Positions 11,491 to 45,209 of a stretch of DNA of 45,585 nt are shown piece after piece. The stretch lies in the IMG/VR virus record IMGVR_UViG_648276647_000019, positions 1-45,585 of that record. The stretch is one strand, 5' to 3'. Each line of letters opens with the position of its first letter. Positions within the stretch are counted from its first letter, which is position 1. The position numbers were made by a program, and so were the translations under genes. This stretch comes from a virus (taxonomy: Duplodnaviria; Heunggongvirae; Uroviricota; Caudoviricetes). The notes beneath the pieces were generated by a model. The model saw nothing but the letters and a program-made list of their open reading frames with translations, was not told the origin of the DNA and ran no database searches.

Positions 11491-11536
11491 CTGAATTGAG
11501 CAACACCCTAAATTGGGGTATTACCTCGTTAAAGAT

Positions 11537-11558
11537 ACTGTATTTATGAACAGTGTAT
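11537..11558. promoter_or_regulatory. LexA (SOS) box upstream of the KilA-N antirepressor-like gene
   Basis: TACTGTATTTATGAACAGTGTA matches the CTG-N10-CAG SOS-box pattern; about 85 nt upstream of the ATG at 11642. Confidence 0.6.
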
Positions 11559-11641
11559 CCTTGATAACTATTAAAAATCGCAGTAAGTTCATCTTGCATC
11601 AACGAAAAGGGAGTGCAGTCCCGAAATTTGTGGAGAAACCA

Positions 11642-12457
11642 ATGAATCAGTTGCTTGTAATTGATGGCGTTTCTGTGCGCCAGTACTTTGAATCTAACTA
11701 CTGTCTTAACGACCTTCAGAAAGCTGCTCTTCTTGCCGCTGGTGAGAATCGCTCCCCCCGTTCGCTGGAAGTTCACGAGTTTATGCGTCGTCCTGAAACG
11801 AAGGCTCTTGTGGAATTACTGGAAGAAGAAACTACGGGAGATTCCCGTAGTATTCCTGTCATCACCATTCAGGGGCGCAATGGTGGGACGTATGTCTGTA
11901 AAGAGCTGGTCTATGCATATGCAATGTGGATCAGCCCGGCATTCAGCTTAAAAGTGATACGTACTTTTGATGCGCTTCATAGTTCATCACCAGAAGAAAC
12001 CACATCCGATAAAATTAAATCCGGGGTCATTCTGCTTGAATCAGCAGCAAAGACTCTAAATCTGTCAAACTCCTCGAAACTTGGTGCATACCAGAAATTA
12101 TCAAAGGTAGCTGGTCTTCCTGAACTTATGCCGATCTATGCCATTGATGCCCCTGCTGATGCGCCAGATGGTTCAAGCCGCCCTACGCTGTCGCTGAGTG
12201 CACTGCTGAAACAGTATGGTATCCGCCTGACGGCTAATCAGGCATATCACCAGATGGCGAAGCTGGGGATCGTTGAACAACGTGAACGATACAGCCGTAC
12301 CGCGATTAACAACATCAAAAAATTCTGGTCGCTGACGGCGAAAGGCTGCATGTTCGGCAAGAACATCACCAGTCCTGCAAATCCGCGCGAGACGCAGCCG
12401 CACTTCTTCGAATCCCGATTCCCTGAGCTGTTAAAGCTGCTCGATACTGTTCACTGA
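11642..12457 (+). CDS. KilA-N domain protein, putative SOS-controlled antirepressor (271 aa from ATG 11642)
   Basis: KilA-N-like N-terminal motif (TYVCKELVYAYAMWISPAFSLKVI); GGAGAAA RBS; the ORF-track start at 11513 would include the LexA box. Confidence 0.7.
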   Translation: MNQLLVIDGVSVRQYFESNYCLNDLQKAALLAAGENRSPRSLEVHEFMRRPETKALVELLEEETTGDSRSIPVITIQGRNGGTYVCKELVYAYAMWISPAFSLKVIRTFDALHSSSPEETTSDKIKSGVILLESAAKTLNLSNSSKLGAYQKLSKVAGLPELMPIYAIDAPADAPDGSSRPTLSLSALLKQYGIRLTANQAYHQMAKLGIVEQRERYSRTAINNIKKFWSLTAKGCMFGKNITSPANPRETQPHFFESRFPELLKLLDTVH

Positions 12458-14406: not shown

Positions 14407-14856
14407 TCACAAGTGAGGGAAGATTCTACGTAATATTGACCAGCACCTTCCGAAGGTATATAGCGAAATCATAAGGGAGGATAAGCCTAACAGTATGAAT
14501 AAGAAATCAATTGGCTGGCCCACAACAATAACATCATCTGGCAAAAACATAGCAATCAATGGGAATACGCATGCGACGATAAGTGTTATTCCTGTTGAAA
14601 GTAAGCGGTTTACTATTGTTGGCAATATGTTGTTTCGCTTAAGAGCATTGATAGCTCCTTCCTTATCGCTATCTGCGCTACTGAATATAGAAATTGCTGC
14701 CAGAACAAACCCAAACAGGATCCCTGAAATTGTCGAAAGCACACCTGCTGTTGTGAGAACGTCAGCATGTTTCATTGGCTTAAACAGTCTGGTTGCCACA
14801 TAGGTAAGTACAGCCAAGAGGACTGCCTTCCAGAGAATAGTCGCTAATTCTCTCAT
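14407..14856 (-). CDS. Small multi-pass membrane protein (about 149 aa, about four predicted TM helices), second gene of the inserted module
   Basis: Several long hydrophobic stretches; lower-GC region; 10-20 nt downstream of the 313-aa gene on the same strand; the two ATGs (14868, 14856) are ambiguous. Confidence 0.6.
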   Translation of the reverse strand: MRELATILWKAVLLAVLTYVATRLFKPMKHADVLTTAGVLSTISGILFGFVLAAISIFSSADSDKEGAINALKRNNILPTIVNRLLSTGITLIVACVFPLIAMFLPDDVIVVGQPIDFLFILLGLSSLMISLYTFGRCWSILRRIFPHL

Positions 14857-14877
14857 TGAATCCCCCATGTCGAGTTA

Positions 14878-15822
14878 TCAAGTTCTGTTAGCGAGTTCAT
14901 ACTGCGCTAAGTAGTTAGCGTTCTCAATTTTAGCAGATATCATCGCTGTTCTGATATCGGAATCAGATGGATAGCCACTTTTAACAACTATTGTTTTTGT
15001 ACCGATCAACACTTGATCAAGTAGGCTTTTCGGCGTTTTGTTTGTGGGTTCAGTGACATCAATTTTCTTGATTTTTAGTCCACCAGAACCTTTGGGAAAC
15101 AGCTCAATCAACTCCTTGATTGCGTCGGTGACTGAGGTTTTAAGATAGTTAAAACCAGCCTTTTTAGGGCGTAAACGACCTCGCATATTCAATCTTAGGT
15201 GCGATCCCCCCATCCCAACGACCATGTCAATGATGTCATTAGTCAAATCGTTCTTAATATTGTAATTAGCTTTATTGAAGTTTCTAGGCGCTGCAATCGT
15301 AAGGTCGAAACTGCGCAAGATATTGCCATCTTCGAGCAGTTCTTTCATGCTCTCATGCTTCCATATTGCTTCAAAAGTAACGTTGTTCATTTTGGTTTTG
15401 TTGTACAAAATAAACGCTAAATCATTAACTTTTGGTCCTAAATGGTTGAGAGTCATGGCTAATAAGTCTGTCTCGTAGTAATACATAAAGTATGTACGCT
15501 CTACGACAGAATCTTTATCGCTAAGGGGTATCGTACGTTCGCTGCCAGTTGTCCTGTCCTCAATAAACGGTAACAGGCAGTCCCTTCTCCAGGATACGTA
15601 GCCAAAGTAGCTCTTCTGTGTTGCGTCCTTTTCAAGTATGACGAGCTTTAAACCTCGATTTTGGGTTTCAGTTGTGTGCACCAAAGGGAAGGTGATCGGG
15701 GCGACTGCAGTAATTTGATCAAAAGCTAGCTTTGCTGTAGACGAACCATCTTTTTTGCTTCCATTACCAGTGAAAAAACCAACTCTAACTCGACGAGTTT
15801 TGTTCTTGTCTTGAGTGCTCAT
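14878..15822 (-). CDS. Hypothetical cytoplasmic protein (313 aa from ATG 15822), first gene of the inserted module; candidate defence protein
   Basis: Lys/Asn-rich, lower-GC ORF; the 415-aa ORF-track version reads through terminator hairpins and A-tracts, so the ATG at 15822 is preferred; no motif assigned. Confidence 0.6.
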   Translation of the reverse strand: MSTQDKNKTRRVRVGFFTGNGSKKDGSSTAKLAFDQITAVAPITFPLVHTTETQNRGLKLVILEKDATQKSYFGYVSWRRDCLLPFIEDRTTGSERTIPLSDKDSVVERTYFMYYYETDLLAMTLNHLGPKVNDLAFILYNKTKMNNVTFEAIWKHESMKELLEDGNILRSFDLTIAAPRNFNKANYNIKNDLTNDIIDMVVGMGGSHLRLNMRGRLRPKKAGFNYLKTSVTDAIKELIELFPKGSGGLKIKKIDVTEPTNKTPKSLLDQVLIGTKTIVVKSGYPSDSDIRTAMISAKIENANYLAQYELANRT

Positions 15823-15870
15823 TCTCGATCCGAAACAAAGTTTAACAACTGGATGAAAACTACAATAAAA

Positions 15871-15900
15871 ATTAGAGAAAATCACTAATGCGGTCCGCAA
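15871..15900 (-). promoter_or_regulatory. Candidate sigma70 promoter for the two-gene module (-35 TTGCGG, 18 nt, -10 TCTAAT on minus strand)
   Basis: Read from the reverse complement of 15871-15900; about 45 nt upstream of the ATG at 15822. Confidence 0.3.
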
Positions 15901-15948
15901 AAAATACTGTAATCTGTTAAGAATGGTCACTTCGCCACACAACTTAAA

Positions 15949-15970
15949 CCCGCCGCGAGCGGTTTTTTTC
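15949..15970 (+). terminator. Plus-strand intrinsic terminator (CCGC stem, loop, GCGG, then T7)
   Basis: ACCCGCCGCGAGCGGTTTTTTT; would stop rightward read-through from Q before the lysis genes. Confidence 0.45.
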
Positions 15971-16002
15971 ATTTCTGGCATCCCGCAGGCAGAAATGCAG
16001 GC

Positions 16003-16032
16003 AAAAAAAAAGCAGGGCGGCGCGCGCCCTGC
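16003..16032 (-). terminator. Minus-strand intrinsic terminator (8-bp GC stem GCAGGGCG/CGCCCTGC followed by U9)
   Basis: Plus strand shows A9 then the perfect-arm hairpin; on the minus strand the hairpin is followed by nine U. Confidence 0.55.
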
Positions 16033-16169
16033 AAAAATGGATGGCGCCAGGGGATGATGGATACCCCTTGACGGTTTCATGTTCTCAACGCACAAGATAG
16101 TATAAAGAGCGGAGAGTGTATACAAAGGAAGTGTTGCAGAATTACAGGAAATGATGCGTTTTGTTATTA

Positions 16170-16200
16170 TTGATATAATGCGAAATCATTTTTATAAAAA
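16170..16200 (+). promoter_or_regulatory. Promoter-like element TGATATAATGCGAAAT (extended -10), candidate late promoter
   Basis: Perfect TATAAT with upstream TG; 13-mer TATAATGCGAAAT recurs at about 19393 and in variant form at about 18497 and 14455. Confidence 0.3.
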
Positions 16201-16223
16201 ATGAAATTGCGCATTTAAGGAAT

Positions 16224-16302
16224 AAAAAAATCGGGAACCCAGGGGCTCCCGAAAAGGATTAACATGAATTCTCACAATGTTGCGGTGCCTGCCATGCATC
16301 GC
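16224..16302 (-). ncRNA. Candidate small antisense RNA (about 80 nt)
   Basis: Minus-strand TTTACA-N16-TATGAT promoter (16309-16336) followed about 80 nt later by hairpin UCGGGA/UCCCGA plus U7 (16224-16252). Confidence 0.3.
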
Positions 16303-16455
16303 GTTTTCATCATACCGAAAAAACAACCGCTGTAAACTCTGAAATATTATCCGGTGACGGATGATTAATGGTTTTTATATCAGGTTCGCTACGGCGGGCC
16401 TTTCTTATTCCACTCACCCGACATCCGGGTAATTCATCTCCCGGAAGGGGGAGTC

Positions 16456-16677
16456 ATGACAATGGACAGAATGACAACCGGTGCATCATACGGCGTGTCG
16501 GCGGCCACAACAATTTATTCTCTCCTGGATTCCTTCACCCACGATGAGTGGGCTGCAATCGGTATTCTGGGCGGGTTGTTTTTTGGTGCGCTGACGTGGA
16601 TCACCAATATTTATTTTCAGCACCGGCGACTGAAACTGGAAGAGCAGCAGAGGAATGGCGTTAAAAACGAAAGTTAA
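16456..16677 (+). CDS. Class II holin (pinholin-like, phage 21 S21 type)
   Basis: About 70 aa, two TM segments, the first Gly/Ala/Ser-rich; dual-start-like N-terminus (M-T-M); directly precedes a SAR endolysin. Confidence 0.85.
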   Translation: MTMDRMTTGASYGVSAATTIYSLLDSFTHDEWAAIGILGGLFFGALTWITNIYFQHRRLKLEEQQRNGVKNES

Positions 16678-17194
16678 ATACGGCCTGTCAGCCGCTGTTC
16701 TGGCGCTGATTGCTGCCGGTGCGTCTGCTCCTCAGATACTCGACCAGTTTCTGAATGAGAAAGAAGGTAATCACACAACGGCATACCGTGATGGTTCCGG
16801 TATATGGACCATCTGCCGTGGTACCACCATGGTGGATGGTAAGCCTGTTATTCCTGGCATGAAACTGACGAAGGAAAAATGCGACCAGGTTAATGCCATT
16901 GAGCGGGATAAGGCGCTGGCATGGGTGGAGAAAAACATCAAAGTGCCACTGACCGAACCCCAGAAAGCGGGTATTGCGTCATTCTGCTCCTATAACATTG
17001 GCCCCGGTAAGTGTTTCCCGTCGACGTTTTATAAGCGGCTGAATGCCGGTGATCGTAAGGGCGCATGCGAGGCGATTCGCTGGTGGATAAAGGACGGTGG
17101 ACGCGACTGCCGTATCCGTTCAAATAACTGCTACGGTCAGGTTGTTCGCCGTGACCAGGAGAGCGCATTAGCCTGTTGGGGTATCGACAGATAA
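16655..17194 (+). CDS. SAR endolysin (lysozyme with N-terminal signal-anchor-release domain)
   Basis: N-terminal weakly hydrophobic Ala/Gly-rich segment (LSAAVLALIAAGASAP) followed by a lysozyme-type catalytic region; overlaps holin 3' end. Confidence 0.9.
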   Translation: MALKTKVKYGLSAAVLALIAAGASAPQILDQFLNEKEGNHTTAYRDGSGIWTICRGTTMVDGKPVIPGMKLTKEKCDQVNAIERDKALAWVEKNIKVPLTEPQKAGIASFCSYNIGPGKCFPSTFYKRLNAGDRKGACEAIRWWIKDGGRDCRIRSNNCYGQVVRRDQESALACWGIDR

Positions 17195-17303
17195 GCAGAA
17201 TATTTCGCTGAAAAATGACGTTGGCCAACGCGGGCGGATAACACGAAATCCTGCAAACCGGCAAAATGTAAGTGAATAAAGCCAGGGTTATTGTTTCACG
17301 CAG

Positions 17304-17330
17304 AGGCACCGTAATGGTGCCTTTGTCATT
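17304..17330 (+). terminator. Intrinsic terminator-like hairpin after the endolysin
   Basis: AGGCACC-GTAAT-GGTGCCT followed by TTTGTCATTT. Confidence 0.45.
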
Positions 17331-17468
17331 TATGCGCTTCGCACAAGCGTAAATAAACCAAAGAACCTTTCAGGATGAGCCCTGGTGGATAACCGGCAGT
17401 GGTCTGGTTAACCCTTTTTGGGCTGGTTATTCCTGTGCGCAGGGTTCATCACTAAAAGGAAGTAACCG

Positions 17469-18038
17469 ATGAATATGATGACCGTGCCATTCCACGGCGC
17501 AGAGCTTTATGTTGTCAACCACAACGGCGAGCCGTACACCCCAATGAAACCTATCGTTGAGGGAATGGGTATGACCTGGCAGTCTCAACACCGCAAGTTG
17601 ATGGAGAGATTTAAGACCTGCATCATCGAAATGATGATGCAGCTCCCCGGTGATACTCAGCGTCGTCTGGTTATCTGTCTTGCTTTACGTAAACTTGCAG
17701 GTTGGCTGCAAACCATCAGCCCTAACAAAGTCCGCCCTGAAATCCGCGACAAGGTAATCCAGTATCAGGAAGAGTGTGACGATGTGCTCTATGAATACTG
17801 GACTAAAGGTTTTGTCGTTAATCCCCGTCGAATGAGCGTGATGGAGGAACTCAACCAGGCATGTGCTGACATGAAAAGGGATAAAAACATCGCCAGTCTG
17901 TATGGTGCAGGGTTAAACGAATGGAAATCAGTCAAAGCGGCTCATGTATCAAAAATTCGTGCGCTGGTGGATGAGGCAAACTTGCTGATCGGCTTTGTCA
18001 TGGCGGATACAGGGAAGGGGAAAACCACCGGGACATGA
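17469..18038 (+). CDS. Phage antirepressor (Ant-type, P22 AR N-terminal domain-like)
   Basis: N-terminus MNMMTVPFHGAELYVVNHNGEPYTPMKPIVEGMGMTWQSQHRKL matches the antirepressor N-terminal pattern as I recall it. Confidence 0.7.
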   Translation: MNMMTVPFHGAELYVVNHNGEPYTPMKPIVEGMGMTWQSQHRKLMERFKTCIIEMMMQLPGDTQRRLVICLALRKLAGWLQTISPNKVRPEIRDKVIQYQEECDDVLYEYWTKGFVVNPRRMSVMEELNQACADMKRDKNIASLYGAGLNEWKSVKAAHVSKIRALVDEANLLIGFVMADTGKGKTTGT

Positions 18039-18048
18039 AATAAAAGTA

Positions 18049-18086
18049 AAACCCCGATTGCACGAACAGTCGGGGTTTTTTGTTTC
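18049..18086 (+). terminator. Intrinsic terminator after the antirepressor gene
   Basis: CCCCGA...UCGGGG stem followed by UUUUUUGUUU. Confidence 0.65.
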
Positions 18087-18112
18087 TGACCTTGAGTAAG
18101 ACAAGGGAGAAC

Positions 18113-18295
18113 ATGGGGAAGTATAAACGAATCCTGTTGAGGTTGACTATGAAAAACGGCCTTGAACTGAAGGCGCCTGTAACTGATGACATCAGCAGAG
18201 CGCTGGCCTTTGCTATTAAGTGGGTGGCTGTTGGCATCGCTGTGTCTCCGATACTGTATGGGCTGGCAAAACTGGTCATTGCACTGAAATCATGA
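18113..18295 (+). CDS. Hypothetical small protein with C-terminal TM segment (60 aa)
   Basis: ATG 18113 after AAGGGAG; hydrophobic C-terminus (WVAVGIAVSPILYGLAKLVIAL). Confidence 0.4.
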   Translation: MGKYKRILLRLTMKNGLELKAPVTDDISRALAFAIKWVAVGIAVSPILYGLAKLVIALKS

Positions 18296-18725
18296 ATGGC
18301 TGGCAGAGAGATGAACCGTGTTTTATCGGTCAGATACGCTGGTGGTGAGAGAGGGGCCGGAGGGCTGCGACAGCAGGCCCGTCGGGGCGAAACGGGCAAA
18401 GAAAAGTGCAACACAAATAAAACAATAAAGTTACATGTATTTTGTAAGATATTATTCGAATTTGTTTTGAATTATCGAAATGCATATTATTTACTATAAT
18501 GCAATAATTTAATTTCCATTATTGTCATGGTGTTGCGCGAATAAAAAATCATGCCAGTTTTATTGAGTTTACAATTTTAATGTTAATTATGACAACATAA
18601 TGATAACGCAAAAGGATGAAAAAACTCACTGTACCAGAAGCGGCGGACGACAGCGACGGGCAGCTGCATGACCGCTACGTAATACCCGTTCATCAAAATC
18701 ACGGAGTATCAGAACAGGTGGCTGC

Positions 18726-19193
18726 ATGAACCGCATAACGACGTACGTAATAATATTATTGCTGGTAGTGACTGCAGCGCTGGCATGGACAACGGACCAT
18801 TACTACCGTAACGCTGTCACTTACAAAGAGCAGCGCGACAAAAACGCCGGAGAGCTGAAACTGGCGAACGCGACCATTACTGACATGCAGCAGCGTCAGC
18901 GTGATGTTGCTGCACTTGATGCCAGATACTCAAGGGAGTTAGCTGATGCGAAAGCTGAAAATGATGCTCTGCGTGCTGATGTTGCCGCTGGTCGTCGCCG
19001 GTTGCGTGTCAGGGCAGTCTGCCCCACCGTGTCCGCAGATAAAACCGCCACCGCCACCGGCGTGGCTGATGCAGCCAGCCCCGGACTTACTGACGCCGCT
19101 CAGCGGGATTATTTCATCCTCAGGGAACGAATCGCAACCAGCGACAAAATGATTCGGGGATTGCAGGCGTACATCAGGAAGGAATGTCAGTAA
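18726..19193 (+). CDS. Rz: Spanin inner-membrane subunit Rz
   Basis: Strong similarity to lambda Rz as recalled (RDKNAGELKLANATITDMQQRQRDVAALD...AENDALRADVAAGRRRL). Confidence 0.9.
   Translation: MNRITTYVIILLLVVTAALAWTTDHYYRNAVTYKEQRDKNAGELKLANATITDMQQRQRDVAALDARYSRELADAKAENDALRADVAAGRRRLRVRAVCPTVSADKTATATGVADAASPGLTDAAQRDYFILRERIATSDKMIRGLQAYIRKECQ
18946..19152 (+). CDS. Rz1: Spanin outer-membrane lipoprotein Rz1 (embedded in Rz, +1 frame)
   Basis: Lipobox LVVAGC and proline-rich core PPPPPAW, embedded in Rz as in lambda. Confidence 0.85.
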   Translation: MRKLKMMLCVLMLPLVVAGCVSGQSAPPCPQIKPPPPPAWLMQPAPDLLTPLSGIISSSGNESQPATK

Positions 19194-19228
19194 AAAAAGC
19201 AGGGCCGGCTCAGACCCTGCAGAATATA
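19194..19228 (-). terminator. Minus-strand intrinsic terminator (GCAGGG/CCCUGC stem plus U7)
   Basis: Plus strand shows A7 then hairpin; the U-tract exists only on the minus strand. A second similar element (CCCC-GGAA-GGGG) lies at 19252-19275. Confidence 0.4.
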
Positions 19229-19410
19229 CGATGAATATTAAGATAAGTTATAAAAATAAAACCCCGGAAGGGGCTCCTATGCCGTCATAAGAATAGTAAG
19301 AATGGTTCCGGGGGTATATGGATAAAAAAATTCAGAATGAAAAAAAGTAATTCTGGTTGTTATTTTGAGTGTTTATGCGAAATGCGCCTTACTATAATGC
19401 GAAATGCTGA

Positions 19411-19440
19411 ATGACAAATAAAAAAAAGGAGCCGAAACGG
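19411..19440 (-). terminator. Minus-strand intrinsic terminator (GGAGCC/GGCUCC stem plus U8)
   Basis: Plus strand A8-GGAGCCGAAACGGCUCC; U-tract on minus strand; adjacent to the TATAATGCGAAAT element. Confidence 0.4.
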
Positions 19441-19633
19441 CTCCGAAAAATAAGTCATCAAAGTTTACACGCGTATTCAATTACGGCTTTGCAGTGCTCG
19501 TCTGCGGTTAATATCGTACAGAAACATAATAATCTTCGTACACCATGAAAATGTAACCAGATACTAAACACTGGCGCATGCCATGAACATATTCTACTGG
19601 CTGAAAAGCCTTATCCATAAGGAGCAAAAAACA

Positions 19634-19816
19634 ATGCCTGAGATTAAAGATATTGTTACTGATGAACTGGTAAAAAATGCCCTTAAATCAGAGGTTGTCA
19701 CTCTGGCTGTAAAAACTCAGATTAAGAACACGCTGGAGCCTCAGATTGAGGTGGCAGTTGATAATGCACTGTCAGATATTCTGGGCGTCATGAGTACAGG
19801 TGACACCGGAGAATAA
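19634..19816 (+). CDS. Hypothetical small protein (60 aa)
   Basis: ATG 19634 after AAGGAG; ORF-track start at 19583 lacks an RBS. Confidence 0.4.
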   Translation: MPEIKDIVTDELVKNALKSEVVTLAVKTQIKNTLEPQIEVAVDNALSDILGVMSTGDTGE

Positions 19817-20171
19817 CAGCGGTTGTTGCTGTATTTGTTCCTCACCGGGCCAGCCTAATCGCTGGGGAAGAACGAAAAAACTTCAATTGCTTGCAAAGCT
19901 GGAACGTCTGGAGAAACAAGGACAGTTTTTATTACCGGGATTCGATAAAGGTATTCAAGCCTGACACATCATGCGCCGTATCGTCGCCGTATTCCTGCAT
20001 TAACCATGACCGCTGCTGATAACCCGGCGCGAGTGTGCGGGAATAATCAGAAACGATGCACACCGGGTTTTTACCGCGTTTATGATTCGCGGGTTTGCCC
20101 CTCATGCTCGCCGGCCCTGCGCGGGGGTGGAAGAAGCGGGGTATTATGAATGCACAGAGAGAGATTAATTT

Positions 20172-20714
20172 ATGGGGATTATCGTTTCATCGTCACCGCT
20201 CAGATTACCCGGCGGATATGATGCCGTCCCTGTCGTTTCATCCGGCACGCCGGTTCTGGGCAATCTGCCTTCTGTTTTTGTCATTCCGACCGGACTCCGT
20301 AAAAAACTACAGCCCGCCAACAGAACGGGGCTGGGGAGTACCGACATCCAGGGGAATGTCATCACCACGCAGGAGGACAGTCGCAGTATTCTGTCAGTAG
20401 TGAACACTTATCTTCAGGAGTCATTAACGGACAGTGAGCTCAGTTTTATTCTTCAGCACAGAAAGCATTTTGTTTTTACTGCCGGCATGGGCGACCGGCG
20501 GCAGGACTATTGCTGGCGTTTCGGGATGATAACCAACTGGCACGGGAAGGATGTGAGTGATTTGTTGATGCAGCCGTGGGTCTACGCCAGTGAACATTAC
20601 AACTTCAGGCTCACATTTGACGGTGAAAGCGGGCAGATGACGCTGACGGACACTCATTATGGTGACAACAATAAGTGGGGAAGTCTGCGTTATCTCACCA
20701 TAGAGGTGAAATAA
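20172..20714 (+). CDS. Hypothetical protein (180 aa), candidate moron between lysis genes and cos
   Basis: ORF with ATG start; no recognisable motif. Confidence 0.45.
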   Translation: MGIIVSSSPLRLPGGYDAVPVVSSGTPVLGNLPSVFVIPTGLRKKLQPANRTGLGSTDIQGNVITTQEDSRSILSVVNTYLQESLTDSELSFILQHRKHFVFTAGMGDRRQDYCWRFGMITNWHGKDVSDLLMQPWVYASEHYNFRLTFDGESGQMTLTDTHYGDNNKWGSLRYLTIEVK

Positions 20715-42675: not shown

Positions 42676-42924
42676 TTAGTGAACAAACCACTCGTCAGCA
42701 GACTCCCAGGTATCTTTCAGAGTCTCCTGAACAAATGTTTTTGCAGAATCCTTATCTGCTGTGCGTGTAACAGAAAGCCCATCATTGCTGGTGGCTTTTA
42801 CGATCACTTCTACATCGTCATAACGCTTACTGATGCGCCGAGTTAATTCTTCCTTTAACGCATCCACAGCACCGTTTGGCATTTTAGTCATTTTCTCTTT
42901 GGCTATGCAGATTTCAATACGCAT
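42676..42924 (-). CDS. dinI: DNA damage-inducible protein I homologue (DinI family)
   Basis: 82 aa with DinI-like ends (MRIEICIAK...[11 protein letters not shown]); tandem LexA boxes upstream. Confidence 0.9.
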
Positions 42925-42937
42925 AAAAATCCCTCTA

Positions 42938-42985
42938 TACTGTGTTTGTATACAGTGTTATTTTTATCTGTATAAATAAACAGTG
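42938..42985. promoter_or_regulatory. Two tandem LexA (SOS) boxes upstream of dinI
   Basis: TACTGTGTTTGTATACAGTG (42938-42957) and CTGTATAAATAAACAG (42968-42983), both CTG-N10-CAG. Confidence 0.65.
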
Positions 42986-44083
42986 TCAAGAGGTCTTGTT
43001 TCTGCTCTTTTGGAGTTCTTCAAAACGATTATGTAAAGATTTCGGATACAGTTCGGTATATACCTGCCATAGCACGTTTAATGAACGATGCCCTGTAACT
43101 TGAGCGACTTCCTCAATACTAAAACCAGCCTCAAATAAGCGACTTGCCCCTTCTCTACGCAAATCATGGTATCGCAGATCTTTAATACCTAATTTGCTTC
43201 TTACCCTCTGAAATCCTGCGGTAACAGAAGTGCTGTTATATGGAAAAATGAATTCTGATTTTTTTGGTTGTCGCTGGACGATATCCCAGGCTTCCCCAAG
43301 CAAGGCAACTTTCATATGGTTACCTTCCTTTTTACGTGGATCTTTCCTATCTCTTACTAGTATAGATTTTTGTTCTTGGTCGAGATCTTCCCATCGTAAC
43401 CGGCATAATTCTCCGATTCGCATACAGGACCACACAGAAAATTTGAGGATATCAACGAACGGAATTTTTGAGCATTTATGAGTAGATCGTTGTTGAAGGC
43501 CTTCAATGAGCATGTCCAGTTCATCAGATGCTGGTCTACGATTACGACGGTTTGATTTACCAATCAAACCGAGTTTAAGTAGATATGGACGAGCGCTTTT
43601 CGCCGGGTTTGATGTGTAATTGATTCCGTATACAGGTTTTGCCGCATCCAGAACACTGCCAAGATAACTAACATCGTGGCTGACTGTTGCTGGGCCTGCA
43701 CCAGCGTTGTTTCTTAGCCTGCAATGTTCAATTACGTCATTTTCTGTCAGTTCAGATAGTTTGATCGCGGATATGTCACTATCCATAAGCAGTTCCAGCA
43801 CATATCTTTTAGTACGGCCTGCTTTACCTCCGGCATTTGGGTCATTTAAATATTTGTGTAGTAAGTCACGGACTGTAAGTCCATCAACAGCATTTGATGA
43901 TGGAATGCCATATAGATCTAATTCCATCACTTTCTGTGCGCCCCATGTTTTGGCATGAGCATGTTTAGGGAATGTTTTGCTTTCCCTGTAAGTGATAACA
44001 CCTTTTTCTTTGATAATCACATTACAGCGATAGCGTGGTGTGCCATCGGATTTTAGTCGTTTCTCTATGTTATAGTACGCCAT
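42986..44083 (-). CDS. int: Tyrosine-type site-specific integrase (dusA-associated)
   Basis: 365 aa with tyrosine-recombinase catalytic-domain motifs (R...HDLRR...Y near the C-terminus); abuts the dusA 5' end. Confidence 0.95.
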   Translation of the reverse strand: MAYYNIEKRLKSDGTPRYRCNVIIKEKGVITYRESKTFPKHAHAKTWGAQKVMELDLYGIPSSNAVDGLTVRDLLHKYLNDPNAGGKAGRTKRYVLELLMDSDISAIKLSELTENDVIEHCRLRNNAGAGPATVSHDVSYLGSVLDAAKPVYGINYTSNPAKSARPYLLKLGLIGKSNRRNRRPASDELDMLIEGLQQRSTHKCSKIPFVDILKFSVWSCMRIGELCRLRWEDLDQEQKSILVRDRKDPRKKEGNHMKVALLGEAWDIVQRQPKKSEFIFPYNSTSVTAGFQRVRSKLGIKDLRYHDLRREGASRLFEAGFSIEEVAQVTGHRSLNVLWQVYTELYPKSLHNRFEELQKSRNKTS

Positions 44084-44260
44084 TACACGACCTCGTTATT
44101 TCGGGTTCCCATAAAACGTGGGAACCTGTGCGGGAACCTAACGCGAGAAAAATAGCCTGAAATGTTCAAAAATGCACGATAATCCTGAAACACAGAAAAC
44201 TAATCAAACCAGCGTCATGCCTGAAAAAACTGGCGCTTACTGGAGTTCTCGGTTTAGCAT
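44084..44260. other. Approximate prophage right attachment region within the 5' end of dusA
   Basis: Integrase start at 44083 and dusA start at 44172; the dusA N-terminal residues differ from the E. coli K-12 N-terminus as I recall it, while the rest looks native. Confidence 0.4.
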
Positions 44261-45209
44261 TGCTCCTATGCTTGACTGGACGGACAGACATTGCCGTTAT
44301 TTCCTGCGTCTGCTTTCCCGCAATACGTTGCTGTATACCGAAATGGTGACCACAGGGGCGATTATTCACGGTAAAGGTGATTACCTGGCGTACAGTGAAG
44401 AAGAACATCCGGTAGCGTTGCAACTCGGGGGTAGCGATCCGGCGGCGCTGGCACAGTGTGCGAAGCTGGCAGAAGCGCGCGGATATGATGAGATCAACCT
44501 GAATGTCGGCTGCCCGTCTGACCGGGTGCAGAACGGCATGTTTGGTGCGTGTCTGATGGGTAATGCGCAGCTGGTTGCCGACTGCGTGAAAGCGATGCGC
44601 GATGTGGTGTCGATTCCGGTGACGGTGAAAACGCGTATTGGCATCGATGATCAGGACAGCTATGAATTTCTCTGCGATTTCATCAACACCGTTTCCGGCA
44701 AAGGTGAGTGTGAGATGTTCATCATCCACGCACGTAAAGCCTGGCTTTCTGGGTTAAGTCCGAAAGAAAACCGTGAGATCCCGCCGCTCGATTATCCGCG
44801 TGTGTATCAACTGAAGCGTGACTTTCCGCATCTGACGATGTCGATTAACGGTGGTATCAAGTCGCTGGAAGAAGCTAAAGCGCATTTGCAACATATGGAT
44901 GGCGTGATGGTCGGGCGCGAGGCGTATCAGAATCCGGGGATTCTGGCGGCGGTAGACCGAGAGATTTTTGGTTCCTCGGATACCGATGCCGATCCGGTGG
45001 CGGTAGTGCGCGCCATGTATCCGTACATTGAGCGTGAACTCAGCCAGGGGACGTATCTCGGCCATATTACCCGGCATATGCTGGGCTTGTTCCAGGGTAT
45101 TCCTGGCGCGCGGCAGTGGCGACGTTATTTAAGTGAAAATGCCCATAAAGCGGGTGCAGACATTAATGTGCTGGAACACGCGCTCAAACTGGTGGCGGAT
45201 AAGCGTTAA
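44172..45209 (+). CDS. dusA: tRNA-dihydrouridine(20/20a) synthase DusA (host gene; 5' end likely phage-supplied)
   Basis: 345-aa protein with the DusA FMN-binding TIM-barrel sequence; ATG at 44172. Confidence 0.9.

Follow-up and report, generated by a model that had tools for sequence, protein, structure and literature searches.

A structured leader precedes an Ant-like gene in a putative accessory slot between the endolysin and spanin genes of an Escherichia coli M605 prophage

The question raised by this locus is why a lambdoid prophage should carry a gene annotated as an antirepressor, and a second small gene behind it, between its endolysin gene R and its spanin genes Rz and Rz1. The stretch analysed, referred to below as the window, is the whole of the IMG/VR record IMGVR_UViG_648276647_000019, 45,585 nucleotides (nt) long, and the two genes encode a 189-amino-acid (189-aa) Ant-like protein (17469-18038) and a 60-aa peptide (18113-18295). 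A first-pass annotation had described the lysis cassette as split by an Ant-type antirepressor which, expressed from the late operon, would act in trans on resident prophages. The reading that we favour, with moderate confidence, is that of a mosaic accessory slot in a Q-dependent late lysis operon, where two independent cassettes lie between R and Rz and the Ant-like gene is gated by its leader. The first cassette would consist of a hairpin with a T-rich run, a leader of about 135 nt, the 189-aa gene, which belongs to the Bro network, and a strong terminator. The second would be the 60-aa tail-anchored membrane peptide, followed by the scar of an Rz-allele replacement.

The leader is far more conserved than the genes around it. 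Compared with Shiga toxin (Stx) 2-converting phage 86 (AB255436), the leader region (17296-17468) is 97.1% identical at the nucleotide level, against 84.8% for R, 75.4% for ant and 70.3% for Rz. Copies with at least 95% identity occur in 530 of 5426 complete E. coli genomes (about 10%), with up to four copies in one genome and no annotation under them, while the window holds a single match to the leader profile (17330-17459, nhmmer E 6.8e-21). Across genera, a stretch of roughly 150 nt ahead of the start codon keeps one layout. A pattern drawn from the leader has matches in at least 120 IMG/VR contigs, and every match is placed 18-24 nt ahead of an ATG. The downstream genes form 17 clusters and encode Phage_pRha, KilA-N (with or without P63C), Bro-N, P22_AR_N or HNH_3 domains. 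Upstream, most neighbours are spanins of Rz type (36 of the 105 match the Rz of the window), and others appear, from their sequences, to be Q-like antiterminators or endolysins. The leader is among the most conserved noncoding elements of these prophages, being found, unannotated, in P22 and many Enterobacterales phages as well as in E. coli genomes, and as one shared post-transcriptional control element it could link a large and little understood class of phage regulators, the Rha, KilA-N, Bro-N and Ant-like proteins.

The same element precedes P22 rha, ES18 gp79, the KilA-N gene of HK544 and BTP1 rha, and blastn ties the leader family to positions 39468-39647 of P22. These cassettes resemble that of the window in their hairpin with a T-run, in the hairpin P0 and the core that runs to the Shine-Dalgarno sequence (SD), and in lying in the late operon beside lysis genes. 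The P22 cassette, however, follows Rz/Rz1 and encodes a Phage_pRha protein, whereas the cassette of the window separates R from Rz and its product is a P22_AR_N protein. In P22-pbi (AF527608, locus L235) the annotated rha gene (orf201, 2308-2913) starts inside the leader (2201-2380), about 70 nt upstream of an SD-preceded ATG that aligns with the starts of all the other cassettes; judged from this alignment, the start of P22 rha may be mis-annotated.

The elements of the leader in the window are as follows.

17335-17349, + strand: hairpin P0
17340-17345, + strand: loop f (CGCACA) in P0, pairing with f' at 17434-17439
17358-17364, + strand: strand a, pairing with a' at 17415-17421
17366-17378, + strand: anti-SD strand e, pairing with e' at 17446-17459 (e' and SD together, 17446-17462)
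about 17391-17409, + strand: inner hairpin

To assess these pairings we used 43 leaders with pairwise identities below 90% (alignment A3), in which 36 base pairs were tested. Both partners could pair in 90.5% of the alignment cells, compared with 28-41% when the 3' partners were slid by one to three columns. Changes on both sides were found in 23 of the 36 pairs (8-15 in the slid controls), and compensatory cells numbered 129 against 13-39. None of 500 shuffles matched any of the observed covariation measures, the crossing helices f and a included, and helix f-f' was compensatory in all six of its pairs. Between its variable, covarying helices the leader has unpaired stretches that are conserved. 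RNAalifold alone was insufficient here, as it gave a nested compromise (d-d' plus the inner stem) and missed the crossing helices. Helices f and a cross the closing helix e, and the leader must therefore form either a pseudoknot or two alternative folds.

The closing helix pairs CCUUUCAGGAUGA with UCAUCACUAAAAGG and covers the SD. At least two of three SD nucleotides were paired in 39 of 42 leaders, compared with 20.2 +/- 3.3 for shuffled strands and 28.9 when partners were permuted, and the mean SD duplex energy was -13.9 kcal/mol, compared with -6.4 kcal/mol for shuffled strands and -10.4 kcal/mol for partners permuted between sequences. The minimum free energy structure of the leader in the window (-50.1 kcal/mol) includes the closing helix, with CCUUU paired to AAAGG, and for a longer stretch the minimum free energy has a z score of -3.4. 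Since the closing helix buries the SD, the default state would be OFF, and the leader probably keeps translation of the Ant-like protein switched off. In the mechanism we propose, the leader would hold synthesis of the protein off or low, and the crossing pairings between the P0 loop and f' and between a and a' would either lock a pseudoknot or form an alternative ON state. These pairings, or processing to a short RNA of the kind seen in P22 and described below, may modulate the gating. The Ant-like protein would be a dose-sensitive regulator that is kept low. Henthorn and Friedman reportedly found in 1995 that rha expression depends on IHF and that over-expression of rha inhibits phage growth in IHF mutants. 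The leader makes both the need for a low dose of protein and the role of the P22 RNA testable.

The conserved 5' region could also act as DNA, whether as a hotspot for recombination or homing, as a promoter bound by IHF or another regulator or as part of a longer open reading frame (ORF), with the RNA structure incidental. The cassette is indeed highly mobile, with genes swapped behind a constant 5' region and HNH_3 endonuclease genes among its cargo; nuclease-linked mobilisation of Bro genes has been suggested (PMC10111431), and the annotated start of P22 rha falls inside the leader. Selection on double-stranded DNA does not, however, predict two-sided compensatory changes, which the 23 pairs show even for long-range and loop-to-strand contacts. 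The leader of the window has stop codons in every frame, a crude scan found no sigma-70 consensus on its + strand, and in P22 the RNA has been detected experimentally (PMC13397905). Taken together these observations make an element acting as DNA very unlikely.

The RNA in question comes from a small-RNA study of P22 infection (2026), which reported an 89-nt small noncoding RNA, “P22F”, with no function assigned (PMC13397905). Comparison with that report shows that the P22F sequence is the core of the leader, from AAUGGGCC to the SD; detection of the 89-nt species is limited to P22-infected cells. We found no description of the leader as a shared 5' element of Bro-network genes in the searchable literature, and Rfam 15 gave no family for either the leader or the AT-rich stretch before Rz (E <= 1). 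On the basis of Rfam 15 and the searchable literature, the leader has so far been noted only as an uncharacterised P22 small RNA. The C4 (RF01695), c4-a1b1 (RF03163) and isrK (RF01394) models likewise had no match at E <= 1 in 15800-20200 of the window or in six related lysis-type loci. The only Rfam hits in the region were sub-threshold and confined to the terminator hairpin behind ant (rimP leader, and sar at 25 bits).

Relatives from the Vibrionaceae (loci L028, L030, L032 and L033; Photobacterium/Veronia) carry P22_AR_N genes preceded by C4 together with isrK or c4-a1b1 elements, scoring 66-72 bits for C4 and 43-61 bits for isrK, and relatives of immI type show sar-like hairpins, so control by RNA is the rule for this class of gene. 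The leader is a new variant of this known theme, that of RNA-gated Ant/Bro genes (c4, sar, IsrK). In the c4-icd-ant system of P1/P7 and in isrK-orf45-anrP of Gifsy-1, a structured and partly processed leader controls translation of an Ant/Bro-type gene, and an upstream terminator hairpin is read through. The window differs in having no coupled upstream ORF, and in its SD-sequestering closing helix with two crossing pairings.

Another reading is that the leader works mainly in trans, as a processed immunity-type RNA comparable to P1 c4, P4 CI and Gifsy-1 IsrK, or as a sensor of a ligand or factor. The variable covarying helices would in that case set specificity between co-resident prophages, or the leader would behave like a riboswitch. 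Such a role would suit the processed 89-nt species that accumulates in P22 infection (PMC13397905), the Vibrionaceae and immI-type RNAs, the alternation of conserved unpaired stretches with variable helices in a pseudoknotted topology, and the presence of up to four type-A leader copies in one E. coli genome. Against it stand the lack of a matching Rfam model for the leader, the chance that the P22 reads come from a stable decay intermediate, and the fact that pairing with the SD in cis is already a sufficient mechanism; we therefore consider it quite unlikely. In a wider proposal, the leader, with P22F as its core, would define an unclassified family of pseudoknotted RNA switches that gate Bro-network regulators in late operons of temperate enterobacterial phages. 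Helices f, a and e would set specificity, and the processed RNA or a factor from cell or phage could turn the switch in trans, allowing cross-talk or immunity between co-resident prophages as in c4, CI and IsrK; this too is unlikely on our assessment.

The features of the lysis region, in order, are listed here.

16456-16677, + strand: class II holin (P21 S-type, pinholin-like), PF04971 at 69.3 bits, PHROG 20
16655-17194, + strand: lysozyme-type endolysin R, similar to signal-anchor-release (SAR) endolysins, PF00959 at 89.6 bits, PHROG 7
17195-17281, + strand: 3' flank of R, ending in the repeat GTGAATAAAG and common to loci without ant (alignments A1 and A6)
17303-17331, + strand: T1, a GC hairpin GAGGCACC/GGTGCCTT (17303-17323) with a T-rich run to 17331, the 5' border of the cassette
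17331-17468, + strand: structured leader of about 135 nt, P22 rha or “P22F” type, identified by nhmmer, covariation and SD pairing
17469-18038, + strand: 189-aa Bro-network protein annotated “Ant”, P22_AR_N and ORF11CD3 domains
18048-18086, + strand: T2, a strong intrinsic terminator with a 13-bp stem (hairpin 18048-18079, inverted repeat I6) and a T-run
18113-18295, + strand: 60-aa peptide, PHROG 1115 (E 2e-41), a family listed there with function unknown
18305-18322, + strand: putative relic of the ribosome-binding site and start of Rz, AGAGAGATGAACCGTGTT (alignment A6)
18323-18615, no strand: lineage-specific filler, a part with 60% GC and then a part with 24.8% GC (18406-18615)
18616-18729, + strand: 37-aa ORF, its stop overlapping the start of Rz, uncertain as a gene
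18726-19193, + strand: Rz i-spanin, a divergent allele, PF03245 at 151 bits
18946-19152, + strand: Rz1 o-spanin lipoprotein embedded in Rz, PF06085 at 55.6 bits

The ORF map and family scans agree with the first-pass annotation on the order of these features, from pinholin and endolysin through hairpin, ant, terminator, 60-aa gene and AT-rich stretch to Rz/Rz1. The PF04971 holin is paired with a PF00959 lysozyme whose N-terminus is hydrophobic and rich in Ala and Gly (segment LSAAVLALIAAGASAP), which is the composition of the phage 21 pinholin and SAR endolysin, with release from the membrane as a prediction. The Rz-family i-spanin with an Rz1 ORF inside it forms a two-component spanin and closes the series, as had been described. 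Likewise ant is followed by a terminator of its own, T2, and the ORF behind it encodes a C-terminally hydrophobic product of 60 aa. Other parts of that description hold in a modified form. A hairpin with a T-run does follow the endolysin gene, yet it lies 110 nt downstream of R, and comparison with loci without ant assigns it to the ant cassette; its equivalents carry a “terminator” annotation in ES18 and HK544. The stretch reported as about 300 nt of very AT-rich sequence is AT-rich over only about 210 nt (18406-18615), after a stretch of 60% GC, and the TATAAT element within it, although present (18495-18500), has no -35 hexamer to match.

A crude scan of the + strand at 17195-17468 and 18087-18112 found no sigma-70 consensus, and the seven promoter-like sites in the region represent no enrichment over shuffled sequence (5.7 +/- 2.4). 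LexA control of ant was considered and rejected, as the spacer between R and ant contains no CTGT-N8-ACAG box even with one mismatch allowed. Both ant and the 60-aa gene run in the direction of the late genes, neither has a detected promoter of its own, and Rz/Rz1 are reached only past the two terminators. The simplest reading is therefore that they are transcribed as part of the late operon, as the first-pass annotation had it. Transcription of both cassettes would depend entirely on read-through of T1 and T2 by Q-modified polymerase, which is required in any case since Rz/Rz1 lie beyond them.

Several points weigh against this combination of late transcription and gating by a structured leader. 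The leaders were collected by a sequence pattern, so that some columns were fixed in advance and the set may be biased towards one subfamily. They are also related to one another, and the shuffle control overstates significance for that reason; the control with slid partners does not have this weakness. Covariation cannot separate a simultaneous pseudoknot from alternative folds, and in an energy model restricted to nested pairs a fold made to include f and a is about 8 kcal/mol less stable. Finally, there may be a weak sigma-70 promoter, or a promoter of another type, upstream of ant.

The annotation of the 189-aa protein as an antirepressor comes from its N-terminal domain. Residues 5-114 match P22_AR_N (PF10547) at 153.9 bits (gathering cut-off 30.7), residues 123-163 match ORF11CD3 (PF10549) at 30.2 bits (cut-off 25) in a helical hairpin spanning about 123-181, and the ORF as a whole matches PHROG 524, “anti-repressor Ant”, with E 1e-99. 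Homologues are abundant: 1985 protein clusters match at E <= 1e-5, and among the best hits listed both domains are kept in E. coli, Salmonella, Enterobacter, Photorhabdus, Xenorhabdus, Serratia, Sodalis, Hamiltonella and others. The “ant” homologues of Stx phages are 75-88% identical in amino acid sequence over residues 1-187, again with both domains. P22 Ant itself aligns to residues 1-127 only, with 44.6% identity. The 189-aa protein gives no match to P22_AR_C (PF10548), whereas full-length P22 Ant has about 300 aa. The setting differs as well: in P22 immI, Ant is accompanied by Mnt, Arc and sar in the immunity region, while the gene of the window lies between R and Rz in the late operon with no mnt or arc neighbours and no sar.

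A 288-aa E. coli relative (P0118) sits behind mnt/arc (divergent Arc-family genes), as a genuine immI antirepressor would, and shares with the window an N-domain of 93% identity, which is evidence of recent domain shuffling. An AlphaFold2 model of the 189-aa protein, of moderate confidence (pLDDT 74.6), has a beta/alpha N-domain resembling the KilA-N/APSES DNA-binding folds and a C-terminal helical hairpin; a sequence search of solved structures gave no meaningful match. This architecture agrees with the view of Bro-network proteins as DNA-interactive, domain-swapping regulators (PMC10111431), and the protein shares with that network (KilA-N/Bro-N/Rha/ANT) a variable, DNA-binding-like N-terminal domain joined to a common C-terminal module and a frequent association with regulatory RNAs.

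A working late antirepressor would bind the repressors of co-resident lambdoid prophages, or the cI of its own prophage, and induce prophages in trans. Its P22_AR_N domain, the near identity of that domain to the protein behind mnt/arc and the uniform use of the name Ant across databases all favour such a function. AnrP of Gifsy-1, an anti-repressor-like protein, raises antQ expression, and Gifsy-1 induction on anrP expression was also monitored (PMC4825925). Ant of phi24B, the only Ant of an Stx phage with a functional study, speeds induction, yet it is the product of a different gene, located upstream of Q and related to the C-terminus of P22 Ant (PMC3064807), and we rejected it as a functional precedent. 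The C-terminal half of P22 Ant is missing from the 189-aa protein, however, and its N-domain fold resembles DNA-binding domains. Rha, KilA-N, Bro-N and HNH genes also occur with this leader and in this slot, which argues for a shared role other than antirepression. A product made after Q would come too late for the induction of its own prophage, whose repressor (4080-4754, - strand) has a Peptidase_S24 domain and is thus of the RecA-cleavable type, for which no antirepressor of its own would be needed. A working late antirepressor is, on balance, doubtful.

Of the earlier identification as an Ant-type antirepressor, then, the P22_AR_N domain stands, while the rest of the P22 protein and its genetic context are absent. 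With just one domain shared with P22 Ant, “antirepressor” is a label read from sequence, and for the lysis-cassette ant the literature yielded homology-based annotation only. The Ant-like gene most likely encodes a late protein akin to Rha, KilA and Bro, with a DNA-binding or regulatory role, and probably no dedicated P22-type antirepressor, although action on other prophages or satellites is possible. A wider caution follows, namely that an “Ant” annotation in the lysis cassette of a Stx phage is no proof of antirepressor activity.

The favoured reading of the region as an accessory slot draws on comparison with related loci. Among the 80 closest IMG/VR loci the order holin, R, ant, Rz occurs in about 77, and a full-length homologue annotated ant is present in 260 phage records, nearly all of Stx phages. 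The annotation of phage 86 gives the order r, ant, rz, rz1, bor, and RefSeq E. coli genomes list a lysozyme, a “phage antirepressor N-terminal domain-containing protein”, a small ORF and then a “lysis protein”. The R-ant-Rz arrangement is known and widely annotated. The synteny called for by the first-pass annotation is thus present in related phages, and the “split” cassette, although correctly ordered, is unexceptional, being the majority arrangement in Stx phages; as routine Stx-phage annotation it changes nothing. The gap between R and ant is 273-278 nt in the IMG/VR relatives and 274 nt in the window (278 nt by tblastn ends), whereas that between ant and Rz varies (157-169, 344, 513 and 1061 nt in the relatives; 691 nt in the window).

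The contents of the slot also vary. Related prophages have between R and Rz ant alone, the 60-aa gene alone or other fillers, and R is followed by the 60-aa gene and Rz without ant in CP027437, phage PhiR5_2 and other E. coli prophages. Both genes intact were seen in the source genome only. In one locus without ant (L003), the 3' flank of R leads directly into the equivalent of T2 and then the 60-aa gene. Short repeats bracket the ant cassette, GTGAATAAAG at 17272-17281 and TGAAATAAAAG at 18036-18046, the first of which is the left junction of the cassette. The comparison supports ant and the 60-aa gene as putative accessory insertions, and a terminator of its own (T2), with presence/absence polymorphism (ant only, 60-aa gene only, both), is what is expected of a moron. 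In a Salmonella enterica locus (L008, CP191473, 1637-3240) a homologue of ant with the same leader follows an endolysin gene that does not match R of the window, so the position after an endolysin recurs beside a different lysis gene. There the ant homologue precedes a 60-aa ORF whose product, with its LVGC lipobox, may be a spanin.

Phage 86 and many Stx1a/Stx2a phages are the closest systems, and they share with the window the order S-R-ant-Rz/Rz1, the 274-278-nt spacer, a leader of 97% identity and the two-domain protein. They differ in the part between ant and Rz, which measures about 165 nt in the Stx phages but 691 nt in the window, where there is an intact 60-aa gene, a relic Rz start, some 300 nt of unique filler and a divergent Rz. 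They also carry stx, which the window lacks, the window having two minus-strand genes in the interval between Q and the holin.

The 60-aa peptide has a basic N-terminus and a C-terminal transmembrane segment and is thus tail-anchored. In the same slot, other E. coli prophages encode it with 95% amino acid identity, and it belongs to a cluster of 411 members. NCBIfam gave no match for this peptide or the Ant-like protein, and PADLOC none for either or for neighbouring genes of unassigned function. With low confidence, we guess that it serves as an accessory peptide of the inner membrane and is produced alongside the lysis proteins. Directly after its gene lie the 18 nt of AGAGAGATGAACCGTGTT (18305-18322), which copy exactly the genuine start of Rz in 63 related loci and for that reason appear to mark the joint of a recombination, the replacement of an Rz allele. 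The present Rz has about 62% amino acid identity to Rz of Stx phages.

Between the relic and Rz, the roughly 300 nt of filler have no homologue in the phage or E. coli collections at blastn sensitivity, no RNA family (Rfam at E <= 1), no credible gene or ORF and no convincing repeats, the best inverted repeat being 73% complementary. Its AT-rich part has 24.8% GC, compared with 52% for the window. We considered this part as a promoter, a gene or the scar of a mobile element and rejected each, given unenriched sites, unconvincing ORFs, weak repeats and the missing homologue. Since a relic Rz start precedes the unmatched sequence and a divergent Rz allele follows it, the GC-rich and AT-rich filler is best read as a putative recombination joint and not as evidence of a regulatory element. 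E. coli relatives have a conserved hydrophobic ORF of 43-49 aa just 5' of Rz (L002, 4361-4510; L003, 3778-3909; L004, 3773-3904), and the 37-aa ORF of the window was tried as its counterpart but is not homologous.

A slot that is a recombination hotspot, with a relic Rz start and foreign filler, might hold nothing but inert passengers, that is untranslated or decaying morons, and the exact sequence of the Ant-like protein (EGI13121.1) is known from strain M605 alone. The ant ORF is nevertheless intact and has its 1985 homologous clusters, with both domains kept in the best hits listed; constraint on the leader far exceeds that on the genes beside it, and the 60-aa ORF is itself well conserved and has a large cluster. 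Inert cassettes are thus highly improbable.

The remaining observations concern the prophage as a whole. At the end of the window a gene at 44172-45209 is, from its translation, presumably dusA (tRNA-dihydrouridine synthase A). It is adjoined by an integrase-like ORF (42986-44083, - strand), which in turn adjoins an 82-aa ORF (42676-42924, - strand) that we take to be DinI-like. These three genes place the prophage, a lambdoid relative of Stx phages from E. coli M605, at dusA. Two perfect CTGT-N8-ACAG LexA boxes (42940-42955 and 42968-42983) precede the DinI-like ORF, which suggests a putative SOS-regulated accessory gene at the prophage end.

Further Bro-network genes of the prophage encode a 594-aa protein with an Ash and two Rha domains (5637-7421) and a 314-aa KilA-N protein (11513-12457); nhmmer found no leader at either. 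The interval between Q and the holin, where Stx phages carry stx, is filled in the window by two minus-strand ORFs of 153 aa (14407-14868) and 400 aa (14878-16080), with a minus-strand terminator-like site at 16032-16012. Pfam and PADLOC yielded no match for either ORF, and the sole NCBIfam result, a MusI-family match of the 153-aa ORF, was far below threshold. The two are candidates for a lysogenic-conversion or defence moron.

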